A stretch of DNA of 64,000 bases from Deltaproteobacteria bacterium (lineage in GTDB: Bacteria; Myxococcota_A; UBA9042): the NCBI GenBank assembly GCA_020632665.1, contig JACKFC010000005.1:7915-71914 (forward strand), written 5' to 3'. The notes beneath the pieces are model-generated. The model saw only the letters and a list, made by a program, of their open reading frames with translations, ran no database searches and was not told the DNA's origin. Shown in pieces: positions 39,137 to 59,200 of this stretch (the stretch's first letter is position 1; each line of letters opens with the position of its first letter). The position numbers and the translations under genes are program-made.

Positions 39137-40036
39137 ATGCATTCGTTTCGCACCCTTTTCGTCCTCGCCTCGATCGTCACCTTCACGCTCTCGGCAGATC
39201 CCGCCGCGGCCAAATCGCCGCCACAGCGCGGCGAGGTCTTGTTGCTCGGGTCGAGCTCGGTCTTCGGCGCCTTCGGCCATCGCGTCGAGCGCGAGCTCGA
39301 AGAGCGCGGCTACGAAGTCACGGTCCACGGCCGCAGCAGCAGCGGCTTCGCACGGCCCGACTTCTTCGATTGGCAGGCCAAGGTCGGCACGATCCCGGTC
39401 AGCCGGCAGACCCGCGCTGCCATCGTCTACCTCGGTGGCAACGACGCCCAGGGCTTCCGCCTGCGCAGCCAGGCCGAGCGCCGCAAATACAAGGGTCGCG
39501 ACCTCTGGTTGCGTTGGAAGCACCGCAACTGGGCCCGCGCCTACGCCGAACGGGTCCGCGTCTTCGGCCGCAAATTGTGCAGCCGCGGCGTGCGGCGTGT
39601 CGTCTTCGTCACACCTGCCGACGTCCGTGACGCGTGGCTGCGCGGACGCCTGCAGCGGATCCGTTCCGCCATTCGCAAAGGTGCCAAGGGCGTGCCATGC
39701 GCCAAGGTCATCAGCGCCGCCGGTGACGCTGCGGCCCTCGCCGGCGACCGGCGGCGGCCCAAGCGCAAGCGGCTGCGCGGCCACGACGGCGCACACATGA
39801 CCCGGCTCGGCGCCGACCGGCTGTGGAAGCGCATCGGCAAGCGGCTCGTCGCCGCGATCAAGGTCAAGGGCGCGCGGTCTTCGCGCCGAAGTGCGCACGC
39901 AGCGCGCTCGTCCACCACGGGTGCAATGGCGCCCAGGCCCGCTGCCAACCATGCCGCCCACCGCGCACGACGCGGCGCTCGACCCGACGCTTCGCGCGGC
40001 GCAGCGCGCGGAAGAGCAGCGCACCACCCTCCTTGA
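39137..40036 (+). CDS. SGNH/GDSL-type hydrolase, exported
   Basis: Signal (FRTLFVLASIVTFTLSADPAAA). Block I LLLGSSS, block III YLGGND, block V DGAHMT. The last ~55 codons lose the GC3 bias and overlap the convergent esterase gene. Confidence 0.75.
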   Translation: MHSFRTLFVLASIVTFTLSADPAAAKSPPQRGEVLLLGSSSVFGAFGHRVERELEERGYEVTVHGRSSSGFARPDFFDWQAKVGTIPVSRQTRAAIVYLGGNDAQGFRLRSQAERRKYKGRDLWLRWKHRNWARAYAERVRVFGRKLCSRGVRRVVFVTPADVRDAWLRGRLQRIRSAIRKGAKGVPCAKVISAAGDAAALAGDRRRPKRKRLRGHDGAHMTRLGADRLWKRIGKRLVAAIKVKGARSSRRSAHAARSSTTGAMAPRPAANHAAHRARRGARPDASRGAARGRAAHHPP

Positions 40037-40772
40037 ATTTGCGCGCCTCCCGATCTCCCCAGGCGAGCAGGAAGCGGACGCCGGCGCCGGCCCCGGCGCG
40101 AACCCGCGCGATCGGGTTGATCTCTGCGAGCTTGCTGGCCGATGCGGGGGCGCCGACGACGTTGACGTAGCAGGCGCGCATCGGCGCATCGGCGACGGCG
40201 ATGGCGAGGTCCGTCGCGGAGAGCGCGACCACCATGCCGAAGCGCGCCGGCTCTCGGAGGGCCAGCGAGAGCGCGCCGAAGCCGCCCATCGACGCGCCGA
40301 CGATGGCGGCGTGCTGCGGTCCCTCCGCCAGCGGGTAGCGCTGCCGCGCGACGTCCATCAAGCGCAGGACCAGGCTGCCGTAGGGGTGACGACCGTCGAT
40401 CCAATCGGCCCAATAGCCGTTGCCACCGTCGGGCAGCAGGATCAGCGTCGGTGCCAAGCTGCCGGCGCGCATCTCGCTCGCCAGCTGCGGCACCACCGTC
40501 GTCGCCTCGAGCCAGGAGCGCGCACTGCCGCCGAGACCGTGCAGCAGGACCAGGACCTTCCACGGGCCGGGCGGCGCGCCGGGCGGTAGGACCGCGATGG
40601 CCCGCATCGTCATGCCGCTGTCGGGATCGCTGGCCAGCAGCTGCTTCGTTTCGCAATTGCCGACCTGGGTCGCCGGCAGCGGCAAAGGAGCGCCTGGCTG
40701 CGCAGCTGCGGTCGTTGCGAGGGCGAGGCCGAACGCAAGCGCGAGCAGGCGGCTCGCGAAGCGCCCGGGCAT
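39864..40772 (-). CDS. Alpha/beta-hydrolase 'putative esterase' family protein, exported
   Basis: Signal (LLALAFGLALATTAAAQ), LLHGLGGS, nucleophile GASMGGFGA. ATG at 40770-40772 overlaps the upstream TGA (TGATG). Confidence 0.85.
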   Translation of the reverse strand: MPGRFASRLLALAFGLALATTAAAQPGAPLPLPATQVGNCETKQLLASDPDSGMTMRAIAVLPPGAPPGPWKVLVLLHGLGGSARSWLEATTVVPQLASEMRAGSLAPTLILLPDGGNGYWADWIDGRHPYGSLVLRLMDVARQRYPLAEGPQHAAIVGASMGGFGALSLALREPARFGMVVALSATDLAIAVADAPMRACYVNVVGAPASASKLAEINPIARVRAGAGAGVRFLLAWGDREARKFKEGGALLFRALRRAKRRVERRVVRGGRHGWQRAWAPLHPWWTSALRAHFGAKTARP

Positions 40773-58165: not shown

Positions 58166-58213
58166 GACGCTTCCTCCTCTGCTCGGCCTGGCGGTGGGAC
58201 GAACGGACTCGGA

Positions 58214-59200
58214 TCAGGGCACGTCGACGCGATCGAAGATGCGCTGCACGACATCCTCGCTGGTCAGCGACTCTGCCTCGGCCTGGTAGTTCAGGATCAC
58301 GCGGTGGCGCAGCACGTCGAGTCCGACGGCCTTGATGTCCTCCGGGATCACGTAGCCGCGTTGGCGCAAGAAGGCGTGGGCCCGGGCGGCCATGGTGAGG
58401 AAGATCGTCGCGCGCGGGCTGGCGCCGTAGTCGAGGAATTCCGCGACGTCGGGGATGCCGAAGCTCTTCGGATCGCGGGTCGCGAAGACCAAGTCGACGA
58501 TGTAGCGCTTGAGCTTGTCGTCGACGTGGATCTCGCGCACCACCTCGCGCGCCCGCAGGATCGCGGCCGCGTCGGCGACGCCGTCGACCTTGGCGCCGCT
58601 GCTGCCGGTCGCCATATCGAGGATCTGCAGCTCTTCGTCCTTCGACGGGTAGCCGACCTTGACCATCAACATGAAGCGGTCGACCTGCGCCTCGGGCAGC
58701 GGGTAGGTGCCCTCCTGCTCGATCGGGTTCTGCGTCGCGAGGACCAGGAAGGGGTCGTCGAGCCGGAAGGTGGTCTCGCCGATCGTGACCTGCCGCTCCT
58801 GCATCGCCTCGAGCAAGGCCGACTGCACCTTCGCCGGCGCGCGGTTGATCTCGTCGGCGAGGATCAGGTTGCTGAAGATCGGCCCCTTCTTCACCGAGAA
58901 GGTCGCGTCCTTCGGGTTGTAGATCTGGGTGCCGAGGATATCGGCCGGGAGCAGGTCCGGGGTGAACTGGATCCGCTGGAAGTCCACCGCCATCGCGCTC
59001 GCCAGCGTCTTGCAGGTCAGCGTCTTGGCCAGACCGGGCACGCCTTCGAGCAAGACGTGGCCGCCGGTCAACATGCCGATCAGCAGGCGCTCCACCATCT
59101 GACTCTGGCCGACGACGACCTTCTGCACTTCGCCCGTGATGCGACCGATGAACTCGGCCTCGGCGCGCACCATCTCGTTCAACACCCGGATGTCCTGCAT
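58214..59200 (-). CDS. moxR: MoxR-family AAA+ ATPase
   Basis: Walker A LLEGVPGLAKT, Walker B ILADEINRA, VLATQNP, FTPDLLPADILG. ATG at 59198-59200 preceded by AGAGGAGAG. The track start at 59284 is rejected. Confidence 0.95.
   Translation of the reverse strand: MQDIRVLNEMVRAEAEFIGRITGEVQKVVVGQSQMVERLLIGMLTGGHVLLEGVPGLAKTLTCKTLASAMAVDFQRIQFTPDLLPADILGTQIYNPKDATFSVKKGPIFSNLILADEINRAPAKVQSALLEAMQERQVTIGETTFRLDDPFLVLATQNPIEQEGTYPLPEAQVDRFMLMVKVGYPSKDEELQILDMATGSSGAKVDGVADAAAILRAREVVREIHVDDKLKRYIVDLVFATRDPKSFGIPDVAEFLDYGASPRATIFLTMAARAHAFLRQRGYVIPEDIKAVGLDVLRHRVILNYQAEAESLTSEDVVQRIFDRVDVP

Follow-up and report, generated by a model that had tools for sequence, protein, structure and literature searches.

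We analysed a 64,000-nucleotide stretch of DNA (the window; assembly GCA_020632665.1, contig JACKFC010000005.1, positions 7,915 to 71,914) from an uncultured Myxococcota-type lineage, in which twelve minus-strand genes (g1 to g12) follow each other in the same direction from 59200 down to 39864 and are packed tightly. Judged from its sequence and from related loci, the cluster is best read as three separate units placed head to tail and presumably co-transcribed here, a reading to which we assign a probability of roughly 0.6. Unit A (g1 to g6) is a recognisable Bat/MoxR-VWA operon with fusions, in the style of Myxococcota, unit B (g7 to g9) encodes two lipoproteins and a FadL-type outer-membrane barrel, and unit C (g10 to g12) is a lineage-specific addition restricted to the clade of the window. 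Bat/MoxR-VWA operons occur widely, in Bacteroidota, Spirochaetota, Francisella and Myxococcota, with effects on virulence and on the tolerance of stress, and their molecular function has not been established since they were first identified in Bacteroides fragilis (PMC3557215). A conserved physical partner of Bat would be valuable, and a first-pass annotation of this DNA had proposed one by taking the g7-g8-g9 trio as an extension of the Bat machine. That proposal is not supported, given that g8-g9 is found without Bat in at least 14 loci and the whole trio without Bat in one locus (L014). The Bat part of the cluster is of an already known kind, with fusions, and the trio is the more interesting object. 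The twelve genes are as follows.

58214-59200, minus strand: g1, MoxR-type AAA+ ATPase, 328 aa (Pfam AAA_3 2.5e-66, AAA_lid_2 2.3e-21)
57287-58165, minus strand: g2, DUF58 protein with a VWA-like core, 292 aa (Pfam DUF58 3.9e-86, VWA_2 7.4e-15)
55617-57290, minus strand: g3, 557-aa membrane protein with signal peptide, Q-rich run and hydrophobic segments (ATGA overlap with g2)
54505-55620, minus strand: g4, BatA with N-terminal membrane domain and VWA, 371 aa (Pfam BatA 1.8e-12, VWA_2 1.1e-14; GTGA overlap with g3)
50550-54482, minus strand: g5 (batBC), BatB-like VWA and BatC-like TPR, 1310 aa (Pfam VWA 8.1e-13, TPR_16)
47909-50548, minus strand: g6 (batDE), BatD fused to a BatE-like TPR region, 879 aa (Pfam BatD 3.5e-16 in 2 stretches; TPR at 649-712)
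45888-47912, minus strand: g7, lipoprotein, 674 aa from ATG 47912 (lipobox Cys; N-terminal half RND porter-like)
44759-45886, minus strand: g8, lipoprotein, 375 aa, predicted all-helical (25-sequence alignment; 'GCGAGD' lipobox region)
43359-44762, minus strand: g9, FadL/TodX-family outer-membrane barrel, 467 aa (Pfam Toluene_X 1.7e-10)
42488-43267, minus strand: g10, Cys-rich lipoprotein, 259 aa with 27 Cys (91-bp gap after g9; no family match)
40772-42475, minus strand: g11, 567 aa, C-terminal PilZ and a conserved N-terminal domain (Pfam PilZ 2.5e-5, residues 463-559)
39864-40775, minus strand: g12, exported alpha/beta-hydrolase esterase, 303 aa (Pfam Esterase 2.1e-14)

All 12 open reading frames (ORFs) translate with 0 internal stops. 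The window has 72% GC, at which spurious long ORFs are common, and codon-position GC was therefore used as a check on the frames. GC at third codon positions (GC3) of ~0.9 tracks each frame from 39.9 to 59.2 kb, and the high-GC position shifts exactly at the frame changes. The gene order, lengths and junctions given by the first-pass annotation were all borne out, the junctions from g1 to g12 being 48 bp, ATGA, GTGA, 22 bp, 1 nt, ATGA, 1 nt, ATGA, 91 bp, 12 bp and GTGATG. No gap is longer than 98 nt, even with alternative starts for g7. A scan for sigma-70-type consensus sites gave a single promoter-like site, at 59326-59299 upstream of moxR, which is not above the shuffled expectation of 0.6 sites; the same scan found no such site inside the cluster, and a consensus scan found no terminator-like hairpin in its intergenic gaps. 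No Rfam family matched in 38000-62000.

The evidence for separate units comes from 34 fetched loci (L001 to L034), for which hidden Markov models (HMMs) of the window proteins were run over all ORFs. Twenty-two of them (L013-L034) came from a metagenome scan with the g9-family alignment, whereas a metagenome scan with a g7 sub-alignment gave no loci; L003, which ends inside batDE, is the sole locus from a genome-contig profile search with the BatD/E alignment. The absence of Bat was judged within the fetched loci, by flanking sequence only. On that basis, no Bat gene was found by the window-protein HMMs in L013-L034, nor in L007, L008 and L010. At least 14 distinct loci have sufficient upstream flank to judge and show g8-g9 behind unrelated genes, with no Bat gene nearby. 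The gene before g8 is Amidohydro_1 in L015, L021, L022 and L025, PNP in L023, PTPS in L019 and L020, a PEGA-domain kinase in L029 and a TMEM260-like gene in L026, and in L007/L008 and L010 (g9 identity 35-37%) the pair stands alone behind PTPS or nucleoside-catabolism genes. The g7 gene lies upstream of g8 in L013, L014 and L017. Locus L014 holds g7-g8-g9 without Bat in 21 kb, and its trio is preceded by an ABC-F ATPase, a 626-aa protein of no known kind and a P-loop protein.

Two of the non-Bat sites are recurrent. One places g8-g9 after Amidohydro_1 among nucleoside-catabolism genes (thymidine phosphorylase, PNP and cytidine deaminase; L010, L015, L021, L022, L023 and L025), and the other places it downstream of PTPS/QueD-like genes (L007, L019 and L020).

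Closer to the window, the arrangement with Bat is kept. Loci L001, L002 and L003 (52-95% identity) have the order of the window, as far as L003 extends, and L004 (g9 54%) keeps it through g12. In L009 (g9 43%, g8 32%, g7 27%) the order is batBC, batDE, g7, g8, g9, g10 and g11, with a 486-bp gap after batDE. In L005/L006 (g9 43%), batDE is followed by an opposite-strand PAP2 gene in the place of g7, then g8-g9, two opposite-strand genes and g10-g11. The first-pass annotation had named in advance a lack of Bat synteny in relatives as telling against its proposal; such synteny is present in L001, L002, L004 and L009, down to 27-43% identity of g7-g9. The link is at the same time interrupted inside the clade, by the PAP2 gene and by the 486-bp gap. 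Moreover, L004, L005 and L009 retain a flanking gene of 183 aa that is unrelated (window 38507-39058), and L004 retains a kinase neighbour as well. Because unrelated flanking genes are conserved too, the adjacency can be inherited synteny and not selected linkage, and whole-neighbourhood synteny by descent would be a sufficient explanation of Bat adjacency within the clade.

The loci that carry g7 group in a single clade of a neighbour-joining g9 tree, and no locus outside this clade is Bat-adjacent. Within it, L014 is the one assessable exception to the adjacency and L005 represents a loss of g7. The likely order of events is that g8-g9 came first, that g7 was added in one subclade and that the module then came to lie directly behind batDE; in the closer relatives of the window it likely came to overlap batDE.

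The core of unit B is the pair of g8 and g9. The g8 gene is immediately upstream of g9 in 31 of the 34 loci, and the HMM search found it there in every locus with room for it; most loci holding both genes show a 4-bp overlap between the g8 stop and a g9 start codon. This marks g8-g9 as an obligate pair, coupled in translation.

The g9 protein is identical to MCB9738344.1. Relatives carry the label 'Myxococcota bacterium' or, used loosely, 'Pseudomonadota bacterium'. It passes the Toluene_X threshold (PF03349, 40.4 bits against a cut-off of 29.7), and its family profile matches TbuX (1.8e-9), FadL (5.7e-9) and TodX (1.1e-8) in the PDB. An N-terminal '...FYNPA...' motif is conserved in its own family. 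The family is nevertheless a distinct subfamily of these channels, with 29-43% identity among its own distant members, and is remote from the solved structures. It also differs from FadL and TodX in being preceded by a translationally coupled lipoprotein, g8; we know of no coupled upstream lipoprotein described for the classical FadL and TodX genes. In a Polyangiaceae metagenome-assembled genome (GCA_016712345.1; L012, 10001-12687), distant relatives of g9 occur in a different arrangement, as two tandem FadL-family paralogues followed by a 456-aa protein of no known family and with no g8-like lipoprotein.

The g8 protein has no match in Pfam, NCBIfam or the PDB. In its 25-sequence alignment the Cys are invariant at C32, C47, C148, C269 and C372, one in the lipobox region and four beyond it, and the mature protein begins with the conserved 'GCGAGD'. 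The four further Cys suggest two disulfides and, with them, an extracytoplasmic location. A word-indexed search returned 3 homologues each for g7 and g8, and because these alignments are too shallow the AlphaFold2 (AF2) models of both are poor, with a mean predicted local distance difference test score (pLDDT) of 41 for g7 and 49 for g8. The g8 model is all-helical at this low confidence and was used for that call only; an armadillo-repeat identity was rejected as resting on generic matches of the model. A match of 1 of the 25 g8 members to VMAP-M15 (vWA-MoxR associated protein middle region) at E 0.015 is probably due to chance, ~0.4 such matches being expected over 25 scans.

SusC/SusD systems, in which an outer-membrane barrel is paired with a helical lipoprotein, offer an analogy only. 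As there, a barrel gene lies beside the gene of an all-helical lipoprotein, but the barrel is of the FadL and not the TonB-dependent type, and g8 has neither sequence similarity nor confident structural similarity to SusD. A precedent is AupA/AupB of Marinobacter hydrocarbonoclasticus, a two-gene operon for a FadL-like outer-membrane protein and a partner of unknown fold, which interact physically and act jointly in the uptake of alkanes, a hydrophobic substrate (PMC5989066). This co-encoding of a FadL-like barrel with a partner envelope protein supports our view of unit B. The order is reversed here, with the partner gene first, and AupB is an inner-membrane protein whereas g8 is a lipoprotein without a detectable family. 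The g9 protein is not an AupA equivalog (NF041571, 25.6 bits against a cut-off of 840).

The third member, g7, belongs to a family that an exhaustive profile search among 1.84 billion representatives resolved into 41 clusters at 50% identity. Nearly all full-length members have 555-704 aa and none is of pump size. The lipobox Cys is invariant and g7 has no internal hydrophobic segment, the signal peptide being the sole hydrophobic segment in nearly all of 29 family members. A profile of the 29 sequences matched BpeF (1.7e-5), CusA (2.6e-5) and MtrD (1.2e-4) among PDB sequences, over pump residues ~45-326, which we take to be the PN1, PN2 and DN subdomains. Pfam ACR_tran matches 19 of the 29 members (best E 2.3e-9), always colinear with profile positions 35-215. 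With the AF2 model, the top 50 Foldseek matches are all RND pumps (best E 2e-6), and the best of them are the isolated AcrB periplasmic construct (PDB 5en5/5eno). The alignment of g7 with BpeF shares a motif of the type '...PGV..v...Ga....v.l.P..la..gv...dv..a...'. Hence, the N-terminal half of g7 appears to be a remote homologue of the RND porter/docking region. It aligns to the periplasmic porter and docking domains of AcrB, CusA, MtrD and BpeF, but g7 has no transmembrane helices and hence no proton relay or energy coupling, is lipid-anchored, has ~650 aa as opposed to ~1040 aa and an unmatched C-terminal half, and is adjoined by no adaptor or TolC-like gene. An RND transporter is ruled out, because the defining twelve-helix membrane domain with its proton relay is absent and members do not exceed 704 aa. 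We make no case for g7 spanning the two periplasmic loops of a pump, as a comparison of its N-terminal with its C-terminal half for an internal repeat was negative and a PDB search with the C-terminal half was negative too.

The 5' end of g7 needs some care. The ATG at 47912, which overlaps the batDE stop, is kept in L001, L002 and L004, making four lineages with the window. A protein starting there has a 47-residue leader ahead of the lipobox Cys, and its first 34 codons carry a weak coding signal (GC3 0.79, GC at second positions 0.68). The true start could instead be GTG 47855 or ATG 47810, leaving a gap of 53-98 nt and no overlap. In the stretch that runs from the batDE stop to the g7 signal peptide (47810-47912, minus strand), the window and L001 share the nucleotide motif GAGCCC...GCGCATCCTGC.G.CGTG, with the counterpart stretches at 9244-9350 of L001 and 7617-7720 of L002. 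It is kept despite 52% overall protein identity and weak coding GC3, and the stretch might serve as a regulatory element, or as a leader of unusual length, and not be ordinary coding sequence.

The main alternative to three separate units is that in this clade they form one trans-envelope assembly of the inner-membrane Bat MoxR/VWA/TPR complex with g7-g8-g9, in which BatD/E (periplasmic BatD domains and TPR) contacts g7, then g8 and then the FadL barrel. A number of observations weigh against our reading and towards this one. Every assessable lineage of the g7 clade except L014 shows Bat adjacency, and g7 is almost confined to the Bat-adjacent clade. The ATGA by which the batDE stop and the g7 ATG overlap is retained in the same four lineages (window, L001, L002 and L004), and its 'A' before TGA is unusual at ~90% GC3, which hints at selected batDE-g7 coupling. 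The adjacency survives in L009 at the low identities given above, and g8-g9 of L005 remain near batDE despite the loss of g7. Set against this are the occurrence of the pair and of the trio away from Bat, the opposite-strand gene (L005) and the 486-bp gap (L009) that separate the units, and flanking genes that are unrelated and equally conserved. In addition, no such downstream genes have been reported for the Bat clusters of Bacteroides and Leptospira (PMC3557215). We regard a single assembly as doubtful: the idea of an extended Bat machine is weakened, not killed, and a functional link between Bat and the trio is possible. The more specific proposal, that g7-g8-g9 is a trafficking module for hydrophobic or lipid cargo, made of a natural, lipid-tethered RND porter domain free of membrane spans, a disulfide-locked helical lipoprotein and the FadL-type barrel, and that in one Myxococcota clade this module is wired both physically and functionally to the Bat MoxR/VWA complex, seems to us unlikely.

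Mere packing would explain the cluster in the opposite way, as functionally unrelated units with independent internal promoters, brought together by compaction of a 72% GC genome, with the start of g7 misannotated. The weakly coding 34-codon leader of g7 and its alternative starts with a 53-98 nt gap would fit, as would the 91-bp gap ahead of g10 and the free variation of g8-g9 neighbours between lineages. However, the gaps (all of at most 98 nt) lack terminator-like hairpins and the cluster lacks internal promoter-like sites, as far as a sigma-70-type consensus scan can tell, and the overlapping ATG of g7 persists in four lineages, so that we hold this explanation to be quite improbable. A question separate from transcription and assembly is whether g7 is unrelated to RND pumps, its matches reflecting a generic beta-alpha-beta-beta-alpha-beta fold and compositional bias; the trio would then be two lineage-specific lipoproteins beside an uptake porin for fatty acids or aromatic compounds. 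Several results count against the homology in this way: every single-sequence ACR_tran score in the family is below the 28-bit gathering cut-off, the window g7 itself has no Pfam match, a profile of the C-terminal half finds nothing in the PDB, and the Foldseek TM-scores are ~0.14 with a model of pLDDT 41. Three independent methods (Foldseek, PDB profile and Pfam) nevertheless agree on RND pumps alone, the matches are colinear with one pump segment in many diverged members, and the alignment with the pump BpeF shows a shared motif, which makes an unrelated g7 improbable. Three head-to-tail units stay our preferred reading of the cluster.

The identity of unit A as a Bat/MoxR-VWA operon, as first annotated, is confirmed by Pfam and NCBIfam matches to MoxR, DUF58, BatA, VWA, TPR and BatD. 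The operon is headed by g1 (AAA_3 221.9 bits against a cut-off of 27; 94% identical in L003), directly followed by the DUF58 gene g2 after the 48-bp gap. In g4, PF07584 scores 47.9 bits against a cut-off of 25.9 and VWA_2 scores 55.4 bits. The TPR of g5 lies at residues 417-471, on the same polypeptide as the VWA, and the NCBIfam model BatB_Lepto matches at 2.1e-23 (83 bits, below its cut-off of 350). In g6, the two stretches of PF13584 score 60.1 bits against a cut-off of 24.1. A MoxR-vWA-beta-propeller ternary conflict system was considered and rejected, as bpMoxR scores 45.8 bits in comparison with 221.9 for AAA_3 and no beta-propeller protein is encoded in the cluster.

Compared with the described Bat operon (B. 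fragilis type and its Leptospira and Borrelia versions), the canonical order of MoxR, DUF58, BatA with VWA, second VWA, TPR and BatD is retained. The differences are that BatB and BatC as well as BatD and BatE are fused here, that g5 has ~830 extra residues without an assignable domain, that the third gene encodes 557 aa without a DUF4381 match, that the BatE-like part has no detected SH3, and that the operon continues into further exported proteins. Fusions and long tandem clusters have already been noted in the Bat loci of spirochaetes (PMC3557215).

Whereas the main domain labels of the first-pass annotation stood (MoxR, DUF58, BatA, VWA with TPR, BatD with TPR, FadL, C-terminal PilZ and esterase), its finer ones are weak or unconfirmed. 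The g3 protein, in the third-gene position of Bat operons and kept in L001 and L003 at 78%, has no Pfam or NCBIfam family above threshold, with neither DUF4381 nor BatD-N and with RDD at E 0.056 only. Straight after its signal peptide come QQGQQ repeats (residues 30-52), and the remainder, with an Ig-like region, several transmembrane segments and a C-terminal part resembling RDD, has no significant family match. Two thirds of g5, the ~830 aa at its C-terminal end (50550-53000, minus strand), have no assignable domain; at residues ~880-960 there are weak signals for PPC (E 0.042) and for a type IX secretion system sorting-domain-like region (20.7 bits against a cut-off of 23). For g6, the C-terminal 200 residues gave no SH3 family, even when E values as high as 5 were allowed.

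The 'double' PilZ annotated in g11 stood in part: a C-terminal PilZ is present (25 bits against a cut-off of 22.5), but hhalign detects no resemblance of the N-terminal domain to it, and a second copy is not supported. Homologues of g10 were found only in L001, L002, L004, L005/L006 and L009, those of g11 only in L001, L004, L005 and L009, and g12 is kept in L004 only. The Cys of g10 follow a linker rich in Gly, Ser, Thr and Asp and resemble repeated small disulfide-rich modules.

On either side of the cluster lie further genes. A long minus-strand gene runs in the same direction from 59334 to ~61300 and lies 134 bp upstream of moxR. Its coding GC3 is strong and it matches no Pfam family; it is kept in L003 (74% over 348 aa) and could belong to the same transcription unit as the moxR cluster. 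At the other end, the 3' end of g12 (39864-40775, minus strand) is overlapped by 173 bp by a convergent DUF459/GDSL-like gene (39077-40036, plus strand; Pfam 2.8e-27), in the place of which L004 has a different, co-directional gene of 286 aa. Ser/Thr protein kinases stand beside the cluster in the window (36681-38423, plus strand) and in L004 (16701-18608), and 2 more, of which one carries an Lcl_C domain, lie to the side of the Bat-less trio in L014 (11421-14891).

From the gene content, junctions and homologies reported here, together with the distribution and coupling of g8-g9, we infer a localisation, a cargo and a direction of transport for unit B. In this lineage, transcription of all units probably starts from the promoter region ahead of moxR. 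In unit A, by analogy with its families, the AAA+ ATPase would remodel or load the membrane-anchored VWA and TPR proteins at the inner membrane. Unit B would be an independent, portable envelope module, in which the g9 barrel may let a hydrophobic molecule cross or enter the outer membrane, as the lateral-diffusion mechanism of its family suggests. The putatively disulfide-stabilised, helical lipoprotein g8 would cap, gate or dock this barrel on one face, and g7, in one subclade, would act in the periplasm, holding this hydrophobic cargo or passing it on with no energy source of its own. One possibility for unit C is that the g12 esterase releases acyl chains for uptake, although a link between units C and B is speculative.

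The first-pass annotation was right that the proteins downstream of Bat are exported (two lipoproteins and a FadL-type barrel) and that the trio matches no described system in the family libraries and open-access literature searched. Nor do those sources describe the g7 family or the pair of g8 and g9, and we found in the literature no account of Bat being linked to FadL, or of lipoproteins that are RND-like but lack membrane spans, although absence there is not proof.

Here, an apparent partner of Bat turns out to be mostly a neighbour and not a universal component, and a wrong generalisation about these widespread operons is thereby avoided. Should the trio be wired to Bat in one clade after all, it would be a first mechanistic handle on Bat function, for example in outer-membrane lipid or lipoprotein homeostasis. 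The g7 family resembles the periplasmic half of an RND pump minus its membrane motor and, if this homology is true, porter domains can serve as stand-alone periplasmic cargo handlers. The obligate and coupled lipoprotein-FadL pair occurs across many uncultured Myxococcota-like genomes and is worth a study of its own.

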